Positions 6,757-31,472 of a stretch of DNA of 32,000 bases are shown one piece after another (position 1 is the first letter of the stretch; each line of letters begins with the position of its first letter). The translations under genes and the position numbers were made by a program. The notes beneath the pieces were generated by a model, which was not told where the DNA came from, did not search any database, and saw only the letters and a list, made by a program, of their open reading frames with translations. The DNA comes from Candidatus Saccharimonadota bacterium (GTDB lineage: Archaea > Nanobdellota > Nanobdellia > Pacearchaeales > GW2011-AR1), in contig BPGA01000001.1 in the NCBI GenBank assembly GCA_026002795.1, forward strand, positions 480,001-512,000. The letters are read 5' to 3'.

Positions 6757-7170
6757 TTAAATAATCTTAAGTTCTTTATTGAAAAAATTCTTTACTATGT
6801 TTCTTAACTCAAGAAAATTTTTCTTTTTTTTACCTATTAAAAGAGCTTTATTTTTTCCAGGATTTATTATTATTTCATTTTCTTTTATTTTAAGAGATCC
6901 AATTTTTATCGGATTTATTATACTTTTTATAAAATAAATTGCGTCTTTTTCTTTTTTAGGGATTATAATAACTCTGACATTTTTATTCAAAATTTTTTTT
7001 ATTTTTTTTACATTATCCTTATTCCTTCCTAAAGACTTGTTGAAAAAATTCCTATCAACAACAAAAAATAAAGAATTGTTGTAAGAAAAACAATATTTTG
7101 CTCTTACTTTAGTAATTCTCTCAAATAAATTTAGATACATTATTTCTTTTATTTCTAGTTTATTTATCAT
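6757..7170 (-). CDS. nusA: archaeal NusA-like protein (two degenerate KH modules)
   Basis: Sits between rpoA and rps12, as in other archaea, and has a two-KH-like layout (…SLGRNKDNVKKIKKIL…, …LLIGKKKKNFLELRNIV…). The track ORF starts at a TTG (7203) that overlaps rpoA. The first ATG (7170, MINKLEIKEIMYL…) is the more likely start. Confidence 0.7.
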   Translation of the reverse strand: MINKLEIKEIMYLNLFERITKVRAKYCFSYNNSLFFVVDRNFFNKSLGRNKDNVKKIKKILNKNVRVIIIPKKEKDAIYFIKSIINPIKIGSLKIKENEIIINPGKNKALLIGKKKKNFLELRNIVKNFFNKELKII

Positions 7171-7183
7171 TTTTAAAAAGAAT

Positions 7184-10100
7184 CTATCTAGAAATACTTT
7201 CAATTATTTCTTCTTTTACACTTTTTTTTTCTGATTCTGGCTTAGCAAGTGGACCTATGACTTTAACAAGTAAACCAGGAAGTCCTGTTCCTACAGGAAC
7301 CGGCTGATTAATTATAACATTTTCTATAACAGAAGAAAGATTATCTTTAGTTCCTTTTATTGTCGCATTAATAAATTGCTTTATTGGAGTCTCAAAAGTT
7401 GCTCTTGCAAGTATTGAAGATTTTTGTGAGATTATTCCTATTCTAGTTACTCCTTTTACCTCACCAGAAGAAGTCATAACATCTGCAATTAATTTTAAAT
7501 GTCTTTTATCTATGTTAAGTCCTTGAGTATTTAAAACTTCAGATATCTCTTTGATGATAAGCTCTCTTGCAGCCTCTATTCCTAAAACTTTTGCTACCTC
7601 ATGAATATCGTTTGATATTGTTTTTTCATTATCTACTTCTTTCATATTCATTACTTTTTCTAAATCTGTTCCTAAAGTTAGGACCACATAATTTTGACCT
7701 CTTTTAACAACTAAAACTTGAGAAATGCCCTTTATTCCAGAGATCATTGTTCTCTTTATTTTTTCTTTGATTTTATAAATCTCTTTAAAACTCGCGTCTG
7801 GAGTATAAATACTGATTGAGTTTTCTTTTTCTCTACAATTAAAACCTAGTTCTTTAAGTCTTTCAACAACTTTTTTAATACCAACATGAATACTTTTTAT
7901 CCCTTCTTTGTCTATTAAAATCCCTATTTTTTTGTTATTGAAATCTACATTTATCTCAGAAGCTATTTCACCAAGTTTTACCTCTTTTATTTTTTCTGCA
8001 AAAATTCTTGCATCTTTTTCATTATTGTAATCTTTCTTAAGATAAATCTCCATTTTTGGAGAAGACGGTTTTTTTCTAGCATCAAAAATTTCTATAAGTC
8101 TAGGCAATCCTTGTGTTATCTGCATTTCAGAAACACCAGCAAAATGGAAAGTTCTTAAAATCATTTGTGTTGAAGGCTCCCCAAAACTTTGTGCAGTTAC
8201 AACACCAATTGCTTCTCCAGGATCTAGTTTTCCTTTAAGATGCAGCTTAGAGACATCTAATCCGTCATCTCCATAAGTAAACTGAATTATGTTATTGTTT
8301 CCATCTCTTACAGTTCCATCATACTCTTTTCTTATATCTTGCAAAGCACTTACTAATCTTCTATAGAGGTAACCAGATTTTGGAGTTCTTAGTGCAGTAT
8401 CCATTAATGATGCTCTTCCAGTCATTGCGCCGAAGAAAAATTCATCAGGATCTAAACCCTTTATATAAGAACTTTTGATAAATCCTCTTGCTCTCGGCGA
8501 TAAATCACCTTTTTTAAAGAAAGGAAGAGTTCTATTTGTATAACCTATTTCAATTCTTTTTCCTTCTAAATCCTGTTGACCGACACAGCAAGCCATTTGA
8601 GTTATGTTTAATACATTTCCTCCACCTCCAGACTTTATCATGTGGGTTACTGGATTGTCTTCAGGAAACTCTTTTTTTATTATCTCACTTATTTTTGTTG
8701 CGGTTTCATTTAAAACTCTTAAAATTTTTATCTCTCTTGACTCTTCTTTTGTTTTACCTTGTATGAGTTCAAGAGTTCCTTCGTTGTACTCTTTAATTAT
8801 TTCTTCTGCTTTTTTCTCTGCTGTTCTTACTATTTCTTCAGTTTCTTCTAAAATCTTTTTACTTACATCTAAATCAGTTAAAGAAATTGTAATTCCTTTG
8901 TTTGTTAAATAATACCTACCAAGATTAAATGCCTTTCTTATTGATTCAAAAGCAACTTCTCTTCCAAAAATTTTATCTATCGATTTTAGCAATTCGCTTG
9001 TTTCATTTCCAAACAAGCTATCATCTATAAATCCTTTGATAATTTCTCCTTCTTTTATTTTTATGTTTTCATTTGAAAAATCTATTTTAGGTAAAACTTT
9101 AGAAAAAACCTCTATTCCAGGTATTGTTTTTTTAGTGAAGTAATGATTTATTTCTGATTTATAAAGTAATTGATTAGCTTCTTCTTTTGTAAAGCTATCA
9201 AAACCAAGTAAATAATTTCCAGTTATTGAGTCTAAAATACAACCAACCCAATTTTTGTTATTCTTAGGAGAAAATAAATTACTTTTTACACCCATTAAAA
9301 CAATTGCTTCTGATCTTGCTTCTTCTGTTTGTGGGCTGTGTATATTCATTTCATCTCCATCAAAATCTGCATTGTAAGGGAATGCAACAGAAGGATGAAG
9401 TCTAAATGTTCTTCCAGGCAAAACTTTTACATAATGAGCTAAAATACTTCCTCTATGTAAACTTGGTTGTCTATTAAACAAAACAATATCTCCATCTATT
9501 AAGTGTCTTTCAACTTGATAACCAGGTTTTATTTCATTTAATATTTCCTCTTTTAGTTCTGGTGTTATTTTTTTTCTTTTTCCGTCTGGTCTTATTATGT
9601 AATTAGCACTAGGGTATTCAGGACTTTTTTCAATCAGTTTTTTTAAGTATTCAATGTTACTATCATTTACTGTTTCATTTACAGTTACTATTTTTGCTAT
9701 TTCATAAGGAACTCCTACTTCATCTATTTCTATTGAAGGATCAGGCGAGACAACTGTTCTCGCACTATAGTTTACTCTTTTACCAGCTAAATTTTTTCTA
9801 ATTCTTCCTTCTTTTCCCTTTATTCTTTCAGCAATTGTCTTTAGAGGTTGACCAGATCTATGTCTTGCTGGAGGTATTTTTGGAACAGTATTATCAAAAA
9901 AAGTTGTAACATGATATTGCAAAAGTTCCCAGAGCTCGTCTATTATTACTTCAGGAGCTCCTGCATTTAAATTTTCCCATAATCTTTGATTTGCTCTAAG
10001 AATGTCTGAAAGTTTATGAGAGAGATCATCTTCACTCCTCTCTCCTGTTTCTAAAATAATACTTGGTCTTACAGTTACAGGAGGAACAAGTAAAACAGTT

Positions 10101-10669
10101 AAGACAGCCCATTCTGGTCTAAAGTGTTTAGCATCTATACCAATTTTTAATAATTCTTCATTTGGAATTTTTACAAGAATTTCTCTTATTTCTGTAGGAT
10201 AAATTCTTGTTTTTCCTCTATAAAATGTTGTTGGTTTCTCAAGCCTTATTTTCTCTTGAAGAGCATTGCAATGAGCGCATCTTTTAGAATCTTTAGCTTT
10301 TTTGACTCTTTGTGTTGGAGTCAATTTTTCTAAATCTTGGTTAGTTATCATTAATTTTCCACAACTATGACAAAAACTTCTTAGACAAAGTTCAATAATT
10401 GGAACATAATTTATATGTATGACAGGTCTTGCTAAATCAATGCTTCCTGGATGGCCTAAACACTCTTTTAATCTTCCACCACAAGTCCTACATCTAACGC
10501 CAGGATCTATTGCACCCAATCTTAAATCCATTAATCCACCATCAACAGGATAACCATCAATATCATAAAGTTCTGGAGTTACAATTTTTGCTACTGAAAT
10601 ATTTTTTATTTTTTCAGGACTTAGCAATTCAAAACTTATTCCACCTATTTTCTTTTTTATGATTTTCAT
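7184..10669 (-). CDS. rpoA: DNA-directed RNA polymerase subunit A, unsplit (A' and A'' regions in one ORF)
   Basis: 1161 aa. A' hallmarks: N-terminal Zn motifs, the catalytic [10 protein letters not shown], and the bridge helix [22 protein letters not shown]. These run without a stop into A'' hallmarks: the trigger-loop region [29 protein letters not shown] and [13 protein letters not shown]. Confidence 0.95.
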   Translation of the reverse strand: [1161 protein letters not shown]

Positions 10670-10670
10670 C

Positions 10671-10964
10671 TTAAGATTTTTGCTCTAAAACCATTTTATT
10701 AAAAATTTCTTTTATTATGTGATTAGCTTTTGTTGTCCATTCTACTGTTCTTTTTTCTTTGTCAAATTTTACCGCTGCTTCTCCAAGCTCATCAAAAAAA
10801 ACATGAGAGATTTTAAGATCATCATTAAAAGTTCTATAACTAACTCTTGGGTCTGTGTCTATTGCAATATAAACTAAATCATACTCTTGAAAGTCTTTTG
10901 CAGAATATCTAAAATCATACAATAGACTGTTTTCTGTTCTTTCTGTTTTTCTTTTTATTCTCAT
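10671..10964 (-). CDS. hypothetical 97-aa protein embedded in the RNAP operon
   Basis: ATG start at 10964, 4 nt after the rpoB stop. TAA stop at 10673-10671, 1 nt before the rpoA ATG. Same strand as both neighbours. No recognisable motifs and no Cys. Confidence 0.6.
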   Translation of the reverse strand: MRIKRKTERTENSLLYDFRYSAKDFQEYDLVYIAIDTDPRVSYRTFNDDLKISHVFFDELGEAAVKFDKEKRTVEWTTKANHIIKEIFNKMVLEQKS

Positions 10965-10968
10965 TTTT

Positions 10969-13900
10969 TTATTCGTATTTGTTTTTTAATTCTAGCCTAG
11001 TTAAAATATGTAAACCCTGCAATTCTTCAACAAGCAATTTGAAAGCATAAGAAACTTCTATAATTTCTACATCTTCGCTGTTACAAAGAGGACAAATTTT
11101 TCTATTTCTTATACTATCTTCTATAGCTATTGCTCCACATTTCGTACAAACAGGAAGAATAACTTTATCAGAATCATATCTTTCTTTTAAAAGTAAAGAG
11201 GCTCCATGTGCAACTAATGCTTGCTGTTCCATTTCTCCAAGCCTCAATGCACCACCGCGAGCACGACCTTCAACAGGCTGTCTTGTTAACAAAGTTATTT
11301 TTCCAGAAGCTCTTCCATGGATTTTGTTTCCAACCATGTATTTTAATTTCAAATAATAAATATTACCAATGTAAATTTTAGCTTCAATTCTTTTTCCAGT
11401 TATGCCAGAATACATTGTTTCTTTTCCATCATATCTAAAACCAAGCTCTTCAAGCTGTTTTTCAAGATCTTCTTTTGTTTCTCCTGAAAAAGAAGTTCCA
11501 TCCATTATTTCACCCTTTAGGCAGCCAACTTTAGCAGCAAGAATTTCAAGAAGATAACCGACTGTTTTTCTGCTTGGTAATCCGTGTGGGTTAAAAATTA
11601 TATCTGGCTTTATTCCTCTTGAAGTAAATGGAATGTCGTCTTCATCAACAATAATTCCAACAACACCTTTTTGACCATGAGAAGTAGCAAATTTATCTCC
11701 TATTTCAGGAATTCTTAAATCTCTAATTTTAACTTGAACAACTTTGTTTCCTTCATCATCTTGTGTAATAAAAACAGATTCGACTGTTCCTCTTTCTCCT
11801 TGTTTTAAAGAAACGCTTGATTCTTTCTTTGACTTTATAGTTATTTCTCTAACTTCTGATAAAAATTTTGGAGGAGATACTTTACCTATTAAAACATCTT
11901 CTTCATTAACATCAATCTCTGGTTCTATAATTCCATCATCTTCTAAAAACCTATAACTTTTTTCGGTTCTATATCCTGAACTATCTTTTTCAGGTATTGT
12001 AATTTCATCTTTTAATCCGCCAGCATAATTCATTTCAACTGCTGTATATGGTTTGAAATAAAAACTTCTTCCCATACCTCTTTCAACACTTCCTCTATTT
12101 AAAACAAGAGCATCTTCCATATTGTAACCATCATAAGTCATTATAGCAACAACCAAATTCTGACCAGCTGGGTAAATTTTTAAAGTGTCATATACAAAAC
12201 TTCTAACTATCGGTTTTTGAGGGTATTGAAGTAATGAGACGTCTGTATCTAATCTTGCTAGATAATTTGCAGAATACAATCCGAGAGCTTGTTTTTGTGT
12301 TTTACTTCCCCTGTTTAATCTAGAACTTTGATCATGGTTTCCGTAAGGAACTAAAGAAGTTATTGCACCAAATAAATCTATATGGTCTATTTCTAAGTGT
12401 GTGTGTTCATGAGTAATATCCTCTTCATTTAAGGCAACTAAAGCTTCATCTTCTTCTGCAGCATCTAAATACTCTATAACTCCATTTTTTAGAAGATCAT
12501 ACCAACTTAATTCTCCTTGCTCAACTCTTATTAAAACTTCAGGAGTTAATTTTGATTTTCCATTTTCAACAACAATTAAAGGTCTTAAAACTCTTCCTGG
12601 TTCTGTAGATATAAAGACTGTTTGAGAAACCTCATTAAATCTCACACTTAATTGTTCTGAAAATTCTAGCTTTCTTCTTTTTTCAACTATTCTTTTTACA
12701 AAATCTTTAGGATTATTAACACAGCCTATAAATTTTCCATTGAAAAAAACGTCATTACTCCCAAAACCACTCCTATTTAAACCTTCTTTTTCTAATACAC
12801 TTAAAAATTTATCTTCATCCATATAAACTCTTGACGAAACTCTTGCTAAAATAGCAAGATTTTTTCTTAATCCAATTTCTGTCCCCTCAGGAGTTTCTAT
12901 AGGACAAAATCTTCCGTAATGTGTTGGATGTAATATTCTAGCTGGAAAATTCTCTTGTTCACTTGAAAGCATGCTTGTAACTCTCTGAAGTTGTGATATT
13001 ACTGCAAAATAATTTGTTTTATCCATATTCTGAGTAATTCCAGATCTTTCTCCAGTCCAGCTTCCGGTTGCTATTGCAGATTCAATTCTATGAGAAAATA
13101 AAGTAGATTTTGCAATAACTTTCAAAGAAAAAAACTTTTTCCTTTTCGAGGCCTTTTGAATTGAGTATTGAATGTCACGAATTAAAATTCCTAAATTAAC
13201 TCTAAATAAACTAGCCAGCAAATCACCAGAAAGTCTAACTCTTTTGTTCATGTAATGATCTTTATCTGTTCTTAATAAAGGATTTTCTTTGTAAGATAAA
13301 AATTGCTTTATAAATTTACATAAAGTTATGGCTTTATCAATTCTTGAATCTTTATCTTGTCCAATATGTGGCAACAAATAATAATCAATTCTTTGCTTAA
13401 CTCTATCTAAAACCTCTTTTTTAGTCCCTTGTAGGCCTGATTTTTCAGCAATATAAAGCATAGCATCTTCTTTTGTTCCTAAGTTTGCAAATTCATAAAG
13501 ATTTACAATGATAGAATCTGTTTCTTTTCCAATATAATTTTGGATTTCAGATTCTTTAACAATACCTAGAGCTTTTAAAACAACAATTGCAGGAATTTCT
13601 TTAAATTTACTGAAAGACAAAGTAATGATACCTTCTTTGCTTTCTGAAATTGTTATTGGAATTCTATAAGTTCCTTTTGCTGAAAAAAGCCTTAAAAGTA
13701 GATTTCCTTTTGCATTTGTTTCAAAAAAAGGCTGGTTTTCTGCGAGATCTTCAGCCATAACCATTATTCTTTCATTGCCTTTAATTATGAAATAACCGCC
13801 AGGATCTAGAGGGTCATGATATGTCTTTATTAGTTCTTCTTTAGACATAGAATAAAGGTTACATGCTTTACTTTTAACCATTATTGGAATTCTTCCAATT

Positions 13901-14223
13901 TCTACAACTTCTGAATCAATTTGATCGTCTTTTTTTATTGTTATTTCTAATGTTACAGGAGCAGAATAAGTTAAATTCCTCATTTTTGCTTCCCAAGGAG
14001 TTAAAAGACTTGTACTTCCATCTGCTTCAATAATGTTTGGTTTGCCGACATTTATTTTGCCTAAGATTATCTCAACATCTGTTTTAGGCAAGGAATCAGA
14101 AACTTCTTGAACAATTTCTTGCATTCTTTTTTCAATAAAATTATTAAAAGAAATTATGTTAGATTCAACTAAAGAGTGCTCATTAAGATATTTTTTTACT
14201 AAAGTGTGTTTTTTATCTTTCAT
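10969..14223 (-). CDS. rpoB: DNA-directed RNA polymerase subunit B (unsplit)
   Basis: 1084 aa with full-length Rpo2/RpoB resemblance (…GRFCPIETPEG…, …HGQKGV…, C-terminal Zn motif CTKCG…CPLC). Confidence 0.97.
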   Translation of the reverse strand: MKDKKHTLVKKYLNEHSLVESNIISFNNFIEKRMQEIVQEVSDSLPKTDVEIILGKINVGKPNIIEADGSTSLLTPWEAKMRNLTYSAPVTLEITIKKDDQIDSEVVEIGRIPIMVKSKACNLYSMSKEELIKTYHDPLDPGGYFIIKGNERIMVMAEDLAENQPFFETNAKGNLLLRLFSAKGTYRIPITISESKEGIITLSFSKFKEIPAIVVLKALGIVKESEIQNYIGKETDSIIVNLYEFANLGTKEDAMLYIAEKSGLQGTKKEVLDRVKQRIDYYLLPHIGQDKDSRIDKAITLCKFIKQFLSYKENPLLRTDKDHYMNKRVRLSGDLLASLFRVNLGILIRDIQYSIQKASKRKKFFSLKVIAKSTLFSHRIESAIATGSWTGERSGITQNMDKTNYFAVISQLQRVTSMLSSEQENFPARILHPTHYGRFCPIETPEGTEIGLRKNLAILARVSSRVYMDEDKFLSVLEKEGLNRSGFGSNDVFFNGKFIGCVNNPKDFVKRIVEKRRKLEFSEQLSVRFNEVSQTVFISTEPGRVLRPLIVVENGKSKLTPEVLIRVEQGELSWYDLLKNGVIEYLDAAEEDEALVALNEEDITHEHTHLEIDHIDLFGAITSLVPYGNHDQSSRLNRGSKTQKQALGLYSANYLARLDTDVSLLQYPQKPIVRSFVYDTLKIYPAGQNLVVAIMTYDGYNMEDALVLNRGSVERGMGRSFYFKPYTAVEMNYAGGLKDEITIPEKDSSGYRTEKSYRFLEDDGIIEPEIDVNEEDVLIGKVSPPKFLSEVREITIKSKKESSVSLKQGERGTVESVFITQDDEGNKVVQVKIRDLRIPEIGDKFATSHGQKGVVGIIVDEDDIPFTSRGIKPDIIFNPHGLPSRKTVGYLLEILAAKVGCLKGEIMDGTSFSGETKEDLEKQLEELGFRYDGKETMYSGITGKRIEAKIYIGNIYYLKLKYMVGNKIHGRASGKITLLTRQPVEGRARGGALRLGEMEQQALVAHGASLLLKERYDSDKVILPVCTKCGAIAIEDSIRNRKICPLCNSEDVEIIEVSYAFKLLVEELQGLHILTRLELKNKYE

Positions 14224-14245: not shown

Positions 14246-14458
14246 TTAAACAACAACCCTATAATAAAAATTGACTTCTCCAGTTTCTTCGTCTTTTCTT
14301 TCTATTTTTATTATATCTCCGACATTACACCCTTCTGGAAGGCCGGGGTCACCTAAAAGGATTTTAGGGAGCTGAGATTTTGAAATGTTGTATTTTTTGA
14401 GAATTTCTTCTGACTCTTTTTGACTTAACTTTATGTGTTTATTTTTTAGAACGTGCAT
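14246..14458 (-). CDS. rpoH: DNA-directed RNA polymerase subunit H (Rpo5)
   Basis: 70 aa. Rpb5 C-terminal-domain pattern: H.LVPKH-like HIKLSQKESEEILKKYNISKSQLPKILLGDP…GDIIKIER…YYRVV. First gene of the rpo cluster. Confidence 0.9.
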   Translation of the reverse strand: MHVLKNKHIKLSQKESEEILKKYNISKSQLPKILLGDPGLPEGCNVGDIIKIERKDEETGEVNFYYRVVV

Positions 14459-15462: not shown

Positions 15463-15536
15463 TGGCCCCGGAGGGATTTGAACCCTCGACACCCGGATTA
15501 AAAGTCCGGTGCTCTACCAGGCTGAGCTACGGAGCC
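15463..15536 (-). tRNA. tRNA-Lys (anticodon UUU)
   Basis: The reverse complement folds by hand into a cloverleaf: GGCTCCG TA GCTC AGCCTGGTA GAGC A CCGGA CTTTTAA TCCGG GTGTC GAGGG TTCAAAT CCCTC CGGGGCC A. 74 nt, no intron, no encoded CCA. Confidence 0.93.
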
Positions 15537-18696: not shown

Positions 18697-19590
18697 ATGA
18701 ATAAAATAAAAAAAACAGACACGTCAAAAAAAAGTTTGTTATATGAAACTTCTCAGCTAGATTGTTTATCTTACTATAAAAATATTTTTCCAAAACTAAA
18801 AAATTTTTTAAAAAATAGAGAAATAGCAACTAAAATTTATCTTGAAAATTACCCATTAAAATTTCTTGTTAAAAGAGGATCTAAAGATGAACCTTTATTT
18901 ATAGATGAATTAAAAATCTCTAAAAAATTCTTAGAGTTAAGGAAAGCAAAAGATTTGAATGATGTTAAAGAAAAACTTTCTCAACAAGAAATAAAAATTT
19001 GGCATTATTTTGTGCCTAGAAAAATGATAGAATTTCATTATGCATGCAATCATGAGAAAGGTGAAGAAATAGATAGAATTTTTATTGATATAGACAGAAG
19101 CGGCAAATACACTGCAGAAGATTCAAAAAAAGTTACTTTAGAATTAATTAATCAAATAAGAAAAGATTCAGAATTAAAAAAAATAATAAATTTCGAGATT
19201 AAAATTGTTTGGACAGGAAAAAGCTTTCATGTTTATCTTTTTTTAAAAAAGAAAGTTAATCATAAATTTTATGATCTTTATTTTTCTTGGGGAAAAGATA
19301 AAGAAAGTTTTATCGAAAAATGGGCAGAAGAAATATCAAAAAAAACAAATATACCTGTAGAAGCGCACCATGAAAGAGAAAGAGGAAAGATTATATTGGA
19401 TACATCAGCAACACCACCTGGTAAATTAGCAAGATCTCCTTTCTCTTTACATTTAAATTCTAACGGTGAAATAGATGGAATTTCTGTCCCATTAAGCATA
19501 AAACAACTCAAGGACAAGAACATAATTCAAAAATTACAAAAATTAAATGTAGAAGAAGTAATAAAAAACCTAAACAAATACAAAATATAA
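18697..19590 (+). CDS. archaeo-eukaryotic primase (AEP) superfamily protein, LigD polymerase-domain-like primase-polymerase
   Basis: 297 aa. AEP motif I FIDIDRS (DxD), motif II WTGKSFHVYL (SGxGxH-like), and motif III region RGKIILDTSATPPGKLARSPFSLH…ISVPLSIKQL. That region resembles LigD-PolDom R.GKVFIDY.RN..G.T.VAPYS.R…VS.PL.W.EL. N-terminal YYKNIFPKLKNFLKNREI resembles PolDom YY..VA..LLPHL..RPL. No Fe-S Cys cluster. Confidence 0.55.
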   Translation: MNKIKKTDTSKKSLLYETSQLDCLSYYKNIFPKLKNFLKNREIATKIYLENYPLKFLVKRGSKDEPLFIDELKISKKFLELRKAKDLNDVKEKLSQQEIKIWHYFVPRKMIEFHYACNHEKGEEIDRIFIDIDRSGKYTAEDSKKVTLELINQIRKDSELKKIINFEIKIVWTGKSFHVYLFLKKKVNHKFYDLYFSWGKDKESFIEKWAEEISKKTNIPVEAHHERERGKIILDTSATPPGKLARSPFSLHLNSNGEIDGISVPLSIKQLKDKNIIQKLQKLNVEEVIKNLNKYKI

Positions 19591-19601
19591 AAGATTATAA
19601 C

Positions 19602-19991
19602 ATGAAATATGAATTTGCAGAAGATATACAAAAAAAAGCAGAGGAAATATCAAAAATTTTATTTCCACATATTAGACTTGAAAGAGTTAAATGCTTTAGA
19701 AGTTATGGGACAAACTCGAGAAGAACCGTAGCAAGATGTCACTCCATAGGAAAATTACTTCAAAAAGCCCTTGATGTAAAACCATTTTATGTTTTGGAAT
19801 TTATATCAGAGAGATTTGATAAATTAAGTGAAGAAGAGAAAACAAAAGTTATAATTCACGAATTGATGCATATACCAAAAAATTTTGGGGGTGGATTTAG
19901 ACATCATGATCATGTTTGTTCTAAAAACATCGAAAAAAATTTTAAAATTTATAAAAAAACAAAAAATGAAAGAGAAGAAAATTTTAGTTAA
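19602..19991 (+). CDS. predicted Zn metallopeptidase (HExxH; small archaeal COG4900/SprT-like type)
   Basis: 129 aa. IIHELMHIPKNFGGGFRHH contains HExxH plus a downstream His. The overall layout is that of small archaeal predicted metallopeptidases. Confidence 0.6.
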   Translation: MKYEFAEDIQKKAEEISKILFPHIRLERVKCFRSYGTNSRRTVARCHSIGKLLQKALDVKPFYVLEFISERFDKLSEEEKTKVIIHELMHIPKNFGGGFRHHDHVCSKNIEKNFKIYKKTKNEREENFS

Positions 19992-22410: not shown

Positions 22411-22713
22411 ATGACAGATGTTTACTCAATAATAGAAAAAGCAAGAAAAACAGGAAAGATAGAAAAAGGAACAAACGAAGTTACAAAATCAATTGAGAGG
22501 GGAACAGCAAAATTTGTTTTTTATGCTTCAGATGTAGAACCTAAAGAAATTGTTCAGCACATTCCACTTCTTTGTAAAGAAAAAAATATTCCTTGTAAAG
22601 AAGTTGACAGTAAACATAAACTAGGAATAGCTGCAGGAATTCCAGTAGCTGCTTCTTCTGTTGCTATAATAAATCCTGGTGATGCTGAAAAAGAATTATT
22701 ATCTTTAAAATAA
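22411..22713 (+). CDS. rpl7ae: 50S ribosomal protein L7Ae (K-turn binding protein)
   Basis: 100 aa. [62 protein letters not shown] matches the L7Ae signature. Followed by rps28e as in other archaea. Confidence 0.93.
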
Positions 22714-22727
22714 ATTAGAAAAACAAA

Positions 22728-23027
22728 ATGGGTAGTAAAAAACAACAAAGAATTAGAGAACAGAAACAATTAGGATCAAAAGGAAGCGAAAAAATTTTGT
22801 TAGAGAAAGCAGTTCCAGCTGTCGTTCAAGAAATAATTGGAAGAACAGGCTTTAGAGGTGAAATAACTCAAGTTAAATGTCTTATTCAAGAAGGAAAAGA
22901 TAAAGGAAGACAGATAAGAAGAAATGTTAAAGGTCCTGTAAGAATAGGAGATATTTTAATGCTTAGAGAAACAGAAATTGAGGCAAGAAAAATAAAATCA
23001 AAAGTAACAAAAGGAGTTTATACATAA
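22728..23027 (+). CDS. rps28e: 30S ribosomal protein S28e (with about 25-aa basic N-terminal extension, or a downstream TTG start)
   Basis: Core [62 protein letters not shown] is canonical S28e. The ATG at 22728 gives 99 aa. The in-frame TTG at 22797 would give a canonical-sized 76 aa. Confidence 0.9.
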
Positions 23028-23275
23028 TGGATCTTGAGAGAGTTGATTTTTTATTAAGTGAGATAGAAAGAAACGTTTTAGAGTTAGATGAAGACGGCAT
23101 TGTCATGGTGCCTAACTTAAGTAAAGAAACAATTATAAAGCTTAAAGCAAACCTCTATCGAAAATATGAGGTTTGGGTAGAGCCACCAATTTATCAGGTA
23201 AATAACCAACGAAATTGTAGTGATAGAATCTTAGAGTATACACTCTACGTAGCTAAAAAAGAAGAAAATGCCTAA
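23027..23275 (+). CDS. hypothetical acidic 82-aa protein embedded in the rpl7ae-rps28e-rpl24e operon
   Basis: Its ATG overlaps the rps28e stop (TAATG). AAGGAG lies 10 nt upstream. Its 3' end overlaps the rpl24e start by 8 nt. No family recognised. Confidence 0.55.
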   Translation: MDLERVDFLLSEIERNVLELDEDGIVMVPNLSKETIIKLKANLYRKYEVWVEPPIYQVNNQRNCSDRILEYTLYVAKKEENA

Positions 23276-25024: not shown

Positions 25025-26923
<1,899 letters not shown>

Positions 26924-26946: not shown

Positions 26947-27225
26947 ATGGGAAAGCTTAAAACACCAGAATGGATATTAGAAGGTTTTGATAGTAAAGAA
27001 GAATGGGAAAAAGCAAAAGGAATAAAAAGCAAAGGAAAACAAAAAGGAACTTTTAATTTAAGGTGTTGCCCAAAATGCGGAAGCTTTGAAGTTTGTGTAG
27101 TTTTAGTAGGTGAAGAAGGAAAAAAAGCTGACTTATGGGAATGTAAAAAGTGTAAATGGAAAGGAAAAAATATAGAAGAAAAATCTCTTTCAGAAGAAGA
27201 TTATTTAAAAGAACTTGAAAAATAA
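26947..27225 (+). CDS. zinc-ribbon protein (92 aa) between gyrB and gyrA
   Basis: CPKCGS…(20 aa)…CKKCKW forms a CxxC…CxxC zinc ribbon, flanked by Lys/Glu-rich tails. Lies 23 nt after gyrB and 7 nt before gyrA, on the same strand. Confidence 0.65.
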   Translation: MGKLKTPEWILEGFDSKEEWEKAKGIKSKGKQKGTFNLRCCPKCGSFEVCVVLVGEEGKKADLWECKKCKWKGKNIEEKSLSEEDYLKELEK

Positions 27226-27232
27226 TTGAAAA

Positions 27233-29653
27233 ATGAAAGACGAAAATAACAAACAAATTATCAATACTGAAATCTCAGAAGAGATGAAAAAATCTTATTT
27301 AGATTATGCTATGTCTGTTATCGTTTCGAGAGCTCTTCCTTCTGTTGAAGATGGATTAAAACCAGTTCAAAGAAGAATTCTTTATTCAATGTATTTAATG
27401 GGTTTAAAGCCAGGAAGCCAGACAAAAAAATCAGCGAGAATAGTTGGAGATGTTTTAGGAAAATTTCATCCCCATGGTGATGTTGCAGTATATGATGCTC
27501 TCGTGAGAATGGCTCAGAACTTTAGTTTAAGATACCCCCTTATTTTTGGCCAAGGAAATTTTGGAAGTATAGACGGAGATCCTCCTGCTGCTATGAGATA
27601 TACAGAAGCAAAACTTATGCCGATATCTTCAGAGTTATTGCAAGATATAGAAAAAGAAACAGTAAATTTTGTTCCTAATTTTGATAATTCATTAAAAGAA
27701 CCAGAGCTTCTTCCAGGAAAAATACCTAATTTAATTATAAATGGCGCATCTGGAATTGCTGTAGGTATGGCTACAAACATACCACCACACAATATTAGAG
27801 AGGTTTGTGATGCTATAATTGCATACATAAAAGACCCTGAAATTCCAGTTCAAAAAATTCTTGAGATTCTTCCAGGCCCCGACTTTCCTACTGGAGGTTA
27901 TGTTTCTGGCGAAATAGAAAAGATTTACAAAGAAGGAAAAGGAAAACTTATAATTAGAGGAAAAGCATCAACAGAAAAAATAAAGAATAAAGAAGCAATT
28001 GTTATAACAGAGATTCCTTATATGTTAAACAAATCAGATCTTTTAACACAAATTGCTGATCTAGTTCAGAAAAAAAAGATTAATGATATTTATGATATAA
28101 GAGACGAAAGTTCAAAAGGAAAGATTAGGATTGTTTTGGAATTAAGAAAAGATTCAAATCCAAAATTTGTCATAAATTATCTCTATAAATACACAAGACT
28201 TCAAGACTCTTTTAACGTTAACTTTTTGGCACTTGTTAATGGCCAGCCAAGAGTTCTGAACATTAAAGATTATTTTAAAGAATATGTAGAGTATAGAAAA
28301 AAAATAATTACAAAAAGAACAAGATTTGAATTGAAAAAATCAGAGGAAAGAATTGAAATTGTTAAAGGCCTTTTAATTGCTTTAAACAACATAGACAAAA
28401 TTATCTCTTTAATCAAAAAATCTAAAAACACAAATGAGGCTTCTGAATCTTTAATAAAGATTTTTAGTTTAACCAAAAAACAAGCATCTGCGATACTTGA
28501 AATGAGACTTCAACAATTAACTTCTCTAGAAAAAGAAAAACTTGAAAAAGAAAAGAAAGAACTCGAAAACAAAATTTTAGAATTCAAAAAAATACTTTCT
28601 GATGTTTCTGAAATTTTAAAAATAATTGTTAAAGAATTGAATGAAATAAAAAATAAATATGGTGATGAAAGAAAAACACAAGTAATAAGCAAAATTTCTG
28701 AAATATCAGAAAAAGACATTATTCAAAAAAAGGAAGTGATAATTATGATAACAGACAAAGGTTATTGCAAAAGAATGGATTTAAAAACATATAAAGAACA
28801 GAAAAGAGGTGGTAAAGGAATTATTGGTAGTGATCTTACGACAGGAGATTTTGTTAAAGAGGTTATTGTTTGTTCTACACACGACTATCTTCTATTTTTT
28901 ACAAACCATGGAAGGGTTTTATGGTTGAAAGCCTATAATGTTCCTGCAGCTGAAAGATATAGCAAAGGAAAAGCGTTAGTTAATCTACTTAACCTGAAAG
29001 AAGAGAGTATAACAAGCGTTATTCCTGTTAAAAGTTTTGACGATTTCTTGTTTATGGCAACGAAAAAAGGAATTGTAAAGAAAATTTCATTAAAACATTT
29101 TTCAAAACCAAGAGCTAGCGGAGTTAGGGCAATAACTCTTCCTTCTGATAATTCAGATTTTCTTATAGGGGTTGAAGTAGTTCATCCAAAAGAAGAAATC
29201 TTATTAGCAACTAAAAATGGTATTGCAATAAGATTTAATTCAGATGAGGTAAGAGATATGAGCAGAAATAGTTATGGAATAACAGGAATAAAACTTGAGG
29301 AAAATGATGAGGTTAGAAGTCTCGAAGTTCTTAGAGATGATACAATTCTTACAATTACAAAAAACGGATATGGAAAAAGAACTCTTGTTTCAGACTATAG
29401 AAAAACTTCTAGAGCTGGTAAAGGTGTTATAAATTTAAAAGTAACTCAAAAAACAGGAGAGGTTGTAAAAACAGCCTCAGTAAATGAAAAAGATTCTATA
29501 ATTATAACAACTGCAAAAGGACTTGTTTTTAGAACAGCTGCAAAAAATGTAAAAGTTATAGGAAGAGCTACGCAAGGAGTTAGAATTCTAAAGCTTCATC
29601 AAGGAGATTTTGTAACAGATTTAATTAGAGTTAAAGAAAATACTGAAGAGTAA
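27233..29653 (+). CDS. gyrA: DNA gyrase subunit A
   Basis: 806 aa. Typical N-terminus with [17 protein letters not shown], the active-site region [10 protein letters not shown], and C-terminal beta-pinwheel repeats. Confidence 0.97.
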
Positions 29654-31400: not shown

Positions 31401-31472
31401 GCCTCAATGGTCTAATGGCGATGACGCTAGCCTGTCGCGCTGGAGATCCGGGTTCGATTCCCGGTTGAGGCG
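31401..31472 (+). tRNA. tRNA-Asp (anticodon GUC)
   Basis: Hand-folded cloverleaf: GCCTCAA TG GTC TAATGGCGAT GAC G CTAGC CTGTCGC GCTGG AGAT CCGGG TTCGATT CCCGG TTGAGGC G. 72 nt, no intron, no encoded CCA. Confidence 0.93.

Follow-up and report, generated by a model that had tools for sequence, protein, structure and literature searches.

Insertion of accessory genes at fixed places between conserved genes is well known from the hotspots of horizontal gene transfer in bacterial chromosomes and from the variable slots that P2/P4-like and T4-like phages have between their core genes. The order rpoH-rpoB-rpoA is treated as among the most invariant in archaea. Rpo13 and Rpo8 are lineage-restricted small subunits of archaeal RNA polymerase (RNAP) (PMC2675907, PMC3479171), and the monopartite TBP-domain proteins of Thermococcales have 82-136 amino acids (aa), most of them 91-97 aa (Brindefalk et al. 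2013, PMC3597702). The present analysis concerns ORF97, an open reading frame (ORF) of 97 codons located between rpoB and rpoA in a 32,000-nucleotide stretch of archaeal DNA (the window; GenBank assembly GCA_026002795.1, contig BPGA01000001.1, positions 480,001 to 512,000). ORF97 is proposed, with a probability of about 0.6, to be a dispensable, translationally coupled cargo gene of a hypervariable slot at the rpoB/rpoA junction of Pacearchaeota.

No description of ORFs at this junction was found in the literature. For a Woesearchaeota genome, the legend of Figure 12 in PMC13257274 gives Rpo5 as PIN77523.1 and Rpo1 as PIN77526.1; as far as this legend goes, the numbering leaves two accessions where Rpo2 alone is expected, which is compatible with an extra ORF or with a split rpoB.

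The junction in the window is composed of the following features, all on the minus strand:

10969..14223 (-), rpoB (Rpo2), 1084 aa, unsplit, with its stop TAA at 10969-10971 (Pfam Rpb2 domains 1-7)
10965..10968 (-), 4-nt spacer AAAA from the rpoB stop to the ORF97 ATG, a stop-start coupling context by sequence
10671..10964 (-), ORF97, member of junction family A (family search, dN/dS, GC3)
10670..10670 (-), 1-nt spacer G, by sequence, from the ORF97 TAA to the rpoA ATG (10667-10669)
7184..10669 (-), rpoA (Rpo1), 1161 aa, with A' and A'' fused (Pfam Rpb1 domains 1-5 in one protein)

ORF97 starts with ATG at 10962-10964, ends with TAA at 10671-10673 and encodes no Cys. An earlier sequence-only reading of the window had reported an ORF of 97 aa without Cys between rpoB and rpoA, and both its coordinates and its translation proved identical.

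The junction was surveyed in 80 related species loci, selected with RpoB C-termini 76-82% identical, of which 77 contained both flanks. They were distributed as follows:

37 of 77 loci, empty junction, with rpoA at most 29 nt after rpoB and the canonical TAA-A-ATG
4 of 77 loci, gap of 62-140 nt with mini-ORFs or non-coding sequence only
36 of 77 loci, gap of 193-706 nt with same-strand ORFs

The premise of the sequence-only reading, that rpoB is followed directly by rpoA, thus holds for about half of the order and fails for the other half. In the 36 filled junctions the ORFs begin at or over the rpoB stop and finish at the rpoA start. Each junction holds from one to four ORFs, with up to four genes also in further contigs (L093, L095), and the arrangement TAA-(N1-4)-ATG recurs across loci at both ends of the insert. 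When the 55 junction ORFs with a length of 35 aa or more were clustered with phmmer, about 35 groups resulted: family A with 11 members (plus the one in L026, recognized by profile), a Cys-rich family with 4, four pairs and about 30 singletons. Family A, to which ORF97 belongs, occupies the slot in only 4 of the 77 species loci (L012, L026, L048 and L065), and neither hmmsearch nor hhalign (probability <6%) linked it to any other junction group. No Pfam domain was found in 20 other junction ORFs examined. The slot also accommodates products of very different type, such as a two-helix membrane protein in L036 and, together with three small ORFs, a 322-aa YhaM-like OB+HD 3'-5' exoribonuclease in L095 (L095:2036-3004, plus strand; NCBIfam PRK13480, E=9.6e-45, below the cut-off). 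On a neighbour-joining tree of RpoB+RpoA, loci with an empty junction were interspersed among occupied ones, and the ORF types were likewise interleaved. The slot is therefore empty in about half of the related species and filled with many unrelated small ORFs elsewhere. Since it lacks any ORF in half of the relatives and carries dozens of unrelated genes in the rest, ORF97 is not a core polymerase subunit.

Family A itself was delimited by an exhaustive phmmer search against 1.84 billion representative proteins, which retrieved 8 clusters with E values from 3.5e-57 to 1.2e-5, all of 90-110 aa. After profile searches and inspection of the related loci, the family comprised about 23 sequences of 55-113 aa, all from Pacearchaeota/Nanoarchaeota, and a metagenome scan with a sub-alignment of the family added one new locus. 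No fusion to another protein was found among the approximately 23 members. Family A adjoins rpoB and/or rpoA in all 14 readable contexts (the window and 13 others); both flanks are visible in 11 of them, and the remainder show one flank because the contigs are short. The 13 other contexts bear out the expectation of homologous ORFs at the same junction in related genomes. No second copy was detected in the window with the family hidden Markov model against the six-frame translation. Family A is thus confined to one lineage and one junction. The exact ORF97 protein is already deposited, annotated as hypothetical, for 'Candidatus Pacearchaeota archaeon KatS3mg001'.

Whether ORF97 is a genuine gene was assessed independently of its position. 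The stop frequency on its strand is 0.090 per codon, giving a chance probability of about 1e-4 for 97 sense codons, and only 1 of 100,000 shuffles of the 299-nt interval yielded an ORF of at least 90 codons. Length alone is nevertheless weak evidence, since the window also holds four spurious ORFs of at least 97 aa, out-of-frame or antisense. Conservation is the decisive evidence that ORF97 is a real gene. The ratio of non-synonymous to synonymous divergence (dN/dS, Nei-Gojobori) for family A ORFs is 0.33 in the pair L048/L092 and 0.31 in the pair L065/L093, while that of the adjacent rpoB and rpoA codons is 0.02-0.08, with dN in the family A ORF 5-15 times higher. Family A is therefore under purifying selection, much more relaxed than that on the polymerase genes. 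In addition, the GC content at third codon positions (GC3) is 0.153 for ORF97 and 0.145-0.148 for the flanks; because these values match, ORF97 is not recent foreign DNA.

A non-functional origin, be it a chance or decaying ORF or a piece split off from rpoB or rpoA, could draw on the wrong-frame spurious ORFs of the same length in the window and on the truncated family A members in other genomes. It is opposed by the conserved homologues with dN/dS of about 0.3, by a confident AlphaFold model obtained from co-varying homologues, by the chance probability of about 1e-4 to 1e-5, and by the absence of similarity between ORF97 and any RNAP chain in the PDB. The flanking proteins are complete as well: Pfam domains 1-7 of RpoB extend to residue 1079 of 1084, and Pfam domain 1 of RpoA begins at residue 5. 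The RpoB C-terminus '...LKNKYE*' is common to the window and 77 relatives, and ORF-less relatives have this same RpoB end together with the RpoA start 'M.KPIRKKIG' found in the window, so that both termini have the same extent with and without an insert. Neither spacer (4 nt and 1 nt) places ORF97 in the frame of a neighbour, and ORF97 is for that reason a separate polypeptide. A non-functional or split-fragment ORF is thus effectively refuted already. Accordingly, the sequence-only reading was right in describing a gene placed for co-transcription and stop-start coupling that is not a fragment of RpoA or RpoB, and the selection it looked for in place of neutral evolution is intact. Duplication of the rpoA start as the source of the ORF97 start (MRIKRK vs. 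MKIIKKK) was considered and rejected, since Lys/Arg-rich starts are expected at 30% GC and the N-termini of the family are not conserved.

The content of the slot is not static. Family A paralogues occur in tandem, with two copies in L086 and, in L093, a 113-aa and a 92-aa copy followed by an unrelated 90-aa ORF. Decayed forms were also found: L095 contains a 55-aa C-terminal half of the family A domain besides a full copy, L083 retains the first ~30 codons of a family-C ORF whose intact form is present in the close relative L088, and L021, L022 and L063 carry mini-ORFs of 7-19 codons bounded by TAA-A-ATG. Family A is thus duplicated in tandem, truncated and replaced within the slot.

Comparison of close locus pairs gave indications of mosaicism. 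Between L048:3689-3967 and L092:1958-2236 the family A ORF DNA is 93-97% identical, compared with 78-95% for the rpoB flank, and identity falls to 50-55% in the next ORF downstream. The synonymous divergence (pS) in this pair is 0.19 in the family A ORF vs. 0.40-0.54 in all seven rpoB windows, which suggests a recent cassette exchange or a constraint at the nucleotide level. The pair formed by the window and L081 shows the same direction of ORF-vs-rpoB synonymous divergence, but weaker, and in L065/L093 the ORF value lies inside the range of the rpoB windows. The pair L083/L088 presents the opposite situation, with flanks 78-92% identical and family A ORFs of different subclades only about 48-62% identical. 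The correlation between family A ORF and RpoA identities is unreliable, global identities of 20-30% being noisy and the frame of one ORF (L091) incorrect, and only the L083/L088 contrast was used. The opposite directions in these two pairs, L048/L092 and L083/L088, fit a cassette history decoupled from that of the flanks, and the whole pattern fits birth-and-death evolution with recombination between conserved flanks.

Other contents of the junctions are recorded here in their own right. Small Cys-rich ORFs without a Pfam match are present in about a third of the occupied rpoB/rpoA junctions. The Cys-rich family (L015, L030, L034, L054) shows the pattern W-x-I-C-x6-7-C ... C-x7-9-C, which is not a CxxC zinc ribbon, and further Cys-rich ORFs are located in L001/L011, L024, L027, L028, L059, L068 and L009. 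The otherwise AT-rich spacers of the junctions L036:3716-3790 and L041:2665-2752 share a hairpin rich in GC, GTCCTCGGACAAAAGTCCTGCGGAT, which lies some 30 nt before the rpoA ATG (the segments fold at -16 to -17 kcal/mol in RNAfold). L025 and L037 have a different GC-rich motif in common, GGACACCT(C)GCGGTTTCC, directly behind a TAG rpoB stop.

The family A alignments show a common hydrophobic pattern and a Tyr that opens the first strand, while the N-terminal ~15 residues do not align. Three parts of ORF97 can be distinguished:

10920..10964 (-), variable N-terminal tail, residues 1-15, unaligned in the family, with a predicted local distance difference test score (pLDDT) <50 over residues 1-10
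10677..10919 (-), predicted beta-alpha-beta4-alpha domain, residues 16-96 (AlphaFold2)
10737..10754 (-), most conserved motif K-R-T-V-E-W, residues 71-76 (family alignments)

The family consensus of the motif is (K/R)(R/K)TIE(L/W), with Glu75 nearly invariant. AlphaFold2 with an alignment of 18 sequences gave a model with pLDDT 87.3 and a predicted template-modelling score (pTM) of 0.75, with residues 1-10 disordered; it supersedes a poor single-sequence model of ORF97 (pLDDT 49). DSSP assigned to the alignment-based model the elements b1 18-21, a1 25-36, b2 43-46, b3 52-56, b4 64-68, b5 73-76 and a2 78-96. The calculated isoelectric point (pI) is 4.6-7.9 in 16 of 20 family A members, and the alignment contains neither a conserved Cys/His pattern nor an acidic triad. 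An acidic-to-neutral pI together with the absence of such residues points to a protein-binding module rather than an enzyme or a DNA binder.

Library searches did not assign the family. ORF97 matched no Pfam family, and none recurred among 18 members; NCBIfam gave nothing relevant for ORF97. PADLOC had no match for ORF97 and two isolated weak matches among the 18 members, and PHROGs gave single weak matches only. The family A profile against all PDB chains reached a best E value of 0.57, with an unrelated surface protein. Foldseek searches with the ORF97 model yielded no match of significance, whether in the PDB (best E 0.45) or in BFVD (best E 0.024, template-modelling score (TM) ~0.5, uncharacterised phage proteins). 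The sole RNAP chain listed by Foldseek against the PDB was 7ok0_L, with a TM normalized to the query (TMq) of 0.24 and a root-mean-square deviation of 10.5. Among the best PDB matches were the pair Tfb5/p8-Tfb2/p52, with TMq 0.39-0.42, target-normalized TM (TMt) up to 0.59, E 0.8-2.3 and probability of at most 0.44. No family A homologue was found in the IMG/VR viral contigs. ORF97 is outside every known family of RNAP subunits and factors tested (Rpo3-13, Rpb4/7/8, Spt4/5, TFS, TFE, TFB), and family A is an uncharacterised family with a confidently predicted fold lacking a structural neighbour. The absence of Rpo3, 4, 6, 7, 10, 11 and 12, Spt4 and TFS signatures noted by eye in the sequence-only reading was thereby confirmed by Pfam, PDB profile and Foldseek searches, and profile and structure searches likewise gave no confident match to an unrelated known family.

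Taken together, these data are best accounted for by ORF97 as cargo of the slot. As judged from the spacing, its expression would piggyback on the RNAP operon, without a promoter of its own: ribosomes ending rpoB may re-initiate on ORF97 via TAA-AAAA-ATG, and those ending ORF97 may re-initiate on rpoA via TAA-G-ATG. The product would then be made in amounts comparable to those of the two catalytic subunits. Since translation would proceed by termination-reinitiation, an insert would persist only if TAA-(N1-4)-ATG is retained at both of its ends. The product is predicted to consist of a short disordered tail and a mostly acidic-to-neutral beta-alpha-beta4-alpha domain of about 80 residues, and would most likely act via a protein partner and not by catalysis or DNA binding. 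That this partner is RNA polymerase is conceivable but doubtful. The slot would turn over by tandem duplication, decay and recombination, and the very conserved 3' end of rpoB and 5' end of rpoA could act as homology arms.

Several points weigh against cargo of this kind. The spacing is the only basis for co-transcription and re-initiation. Two pairs of loci underlie the recombination model, and differential loss of tandem paralogues or a sequence-level constraint could mimic recombination. The neighbour-joining tree has poor resolution and draws on very conserved proteins. Family A is strictly faithful to one junction over deep divergence, as a true RNAP-associated factor would be. Finally, the slot behaviour may be special to the rpoB/rpoA junction or genome-wide.

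The fidelity to the junction is what gives weight to the proposal of the sequence-only reading, namely that ORF97 is a lineage-specific RNAP accessory subunit, assembly factor or regulator. Such a factor would dock on the enzyme and be produced in step with Rpo2 and Rpo1, like Rpo13, Rpo8 or the bacterial delta, epsilon and omega subunits. The exclusive occurrence of family A at this junction (14/14 contexts), its tight coupling to both catalytic-subunit genes, the purifying selection, the compact predicted domain, whose acidic-to-neutral surface would suit protein binding, and a composition that matches the flanks, unlike that of recent foreign DNA, all agree with it. However, a factor of this type is hardly expected in 4 of 77 sampled species with half of the species having an empty junction (37/77); family A also evolves 5-15 times faster than the polymerase genes, has no Rpo1/Rpo2 fusion among its ~23 members and is unlike any RNAP subunit or factor of the PDB. 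Because family A is patchy and interchangeable with unrelated ORFs (some 35 types in the same position, membrane-protein and RNase cargo included), the argument from position to an RNAP factor is weakened, and this alternative is a tentative one that we regard as possible but on the unlikely side. A related idea, considered unlikely, is that the slot as a whole is a dedicated, fast-evolving repertoire of interchangeable RNAP-binding modulators made in step with the catalytic subunits, in which family A would be a single TBP-like alpha/beta domain beside the Cys-rich family and others. It would diversify in conflict, for instance with factors of viral or host origin that target the polymerase of these episymbiotic archaea. 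If true, archaeal RNAP would have a new class of accessory subunits that can replace one another, and ORF97 would be its first member.

A more specific possibility is that ORF97 is a monopartite TBP-domain protein whose target, at or close to the polymerase, would be DNA or an RNA/DNA hybrid. The predicted element order beta-alpha-beta4-alpha equals that of one TBP repeat, single-domain TBP-like proteins are known in Thermococcales (PMC3597702), and Foldseek gave matches, albeit weak ones (TM 0.26-0.46, E of at least 0.13), to the RnlA N-terminal domain, AlkA and an African swine fever virus-like B263R homologue. These last three are presumably TBP-like folds. On the other hand, TBP is absent from the top 50 structural matches (best TM 0.35-0.50, all E >0.02), none of 18 members matches Pfam PF00352 at E <1, most members are acidic or neutral instead of basic, and a cystatin-like beta-alpha-beta4 arrangement is equally compatible. 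The idea was not adopted because hhalign against six archaeal TBP half-domains gave a probability of 0.2%, and it is very improbable. Cargo related to conflict or selfish in nature (immunity, anti-defence, host interaction), lodged in a constitutively expressed slot and having no link to transcription, would explain the extreme diversity of families, their presence/absence polymorphism, the tandem paralogues and the decayed copies, as well as a cassette history seemingly decoupled from the flanks. The best, although non-significant, structural neighbours are small uncharacterised phage proteins, and the window has a comparable wedge ORF at the gyrB/gyrA junction. Nevertheless, there was no meaningful PADLOC or PHROGs match among 18 members and no homologue in the IMG/VR viral contigs; no integrase, repeats or partner toxin are visible, and family A was never seen outside the rpoB/rpoA junction. 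Such a role is accordingly seen as rather improbable. The probabilities of these readings overlap, the readings not being mutually exclusive, and dispensable cargo of the hypervariable slot is the one retained.

Two further genes of the operon complete the local map:

14246..14458 (-), rpoH (Rpo5), the first gene of the operon (Pfam RNA_pol_Rpb5_C, E=2e-18)
6757..7203 (-), NusA-like KH protein with a TTG start (NCBIfam nusA_arch, E=2.3e-14, below the curated cut-off)

The NusA-like gene overlaps the end of rpoA by 20 nt and the operon goes on with S12, S7 and EF-2, so that its order is rpoH, rpoB, ORF97, rpoA, NusA-like gene, S12, S7, EF-2. The A' and A'' parts of rpoA are separate genes in most archaea; the fused form of the window was also observed in related loci, as one gene of 1161-1163 aa. 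Scans for tRNA genes and Rfam families gave no match in the ORF97 region. The scan for promoters and terminators used bacterial consensus sequences and says little for an archaeon. The only RNA genes detected in the window are tRNA-Lys(UUU) at 15463..15536 (-) and tRNA-Asp(GUC) at 31401..31472 (+).

Elsewhere in the window, a 92-aa ORF at 26947..27225 (+) with a CPKC...CKKC zinc-ribbon motif is situated between gyrB (25034..26923) and gyrA (27233..29653), as a second wedge between two subunit genes of one enzyme. It has sub-threshold matches only (TFS4-like, E~1e-3; Zn_ribbon_IS1595, E=0.004). An 82-aa ORF at 23027..23275 (+), with no Pfam or NCBIfam match, follows L7Ae (22411..22713) and S28e (22728..23027), both identified by eye, and overlaps the S28e stop; the usual occupant of the position after L7Ae/S28e in archaea is L24e. 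A possible mobile-element remnant lies at 18697..19991 (+): it consists of a primase-polymerase-like gene of LigD type (297 aa, Pfam E=3.9e-8) and, directly downstream, a gene for a 'putative phage metallopeptidase' (129 aa, Pfam E=9e-24).

The finding is more interesting at the level of the locus than at that of the single ORF. Throughout a whole DPANN order, the 1-nt junction of the catalytic-subunit genes is a turnover site for dozens of uncharacterised small-protein families, of which the family of ORF97 is the largest. Should the junction proteins bind the polymerase, archaeal transcription would have a further layer of regulation, new and unusually plastic. Otherwise, the locus would show how promoter-poor genomes of about 0.5 Mb gain and express new genes, by way of stop-start junctions of essential operons whose flanks possibly serve as recombination arms. 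In practical terms, the slot provides a set of small proteins, at least one of them with a confidently predicted fold that lacks structural neighbours, and it is a warning against reading function from operon position alone.

Compared with known systems at the level of single proteins, ORF97 resembles Rpo13 and Rpo8 in its size of about 100 aa, its restricted phylogenetic distribution and its possible association with RNAP genes, but it has no sequence or structural similarity to either. Moreover, Rpo13 and Rpo8 are constant within clades, whereas family A is found in ~5% of the sampled species and is interchangeable with unrelated ORFs. With the monopartite TBP proteins of Thermococcales it shares a similar size, a single domain, an archaeal origin and the predicted order of elements; those proteins are Pfam-detectable, while family A is acidic to neutral and is undetected by the TBP profile. 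The predicted domain is also, like Tfb5/p8 with the C-terminal domain of Tfb2/p52 of TFIIH (3dom, 3dgp), which belong to the transcription machinery, a small alpha/beta module, putatively protein-binding. This resemblance is not evidence of homology, and to our knowledge archaea have no p52/p8-type TFIIH core.

The closest likeness of the locus as a whole is to the hotspots flanked by core genes. As in these, the conserved flanks are fixed, and the content varies between close relatives and is missing in many; many unrelated families, tandem paralogues, decayed copies and, in two locus pairs, a mosaic identity across the boundary are likewise found. The rpoB/rpoA slot differs from them in lying inside an essential operon, at a stop-start junction of 1-4 nt between the genes of the catalytic RNAP subunits, where inserts bring along neither promoter nor integrase nor repeats and have to leave translational coupling intact, and in having as host a DPANN archaeon with a genome of about 0.5 Mb.

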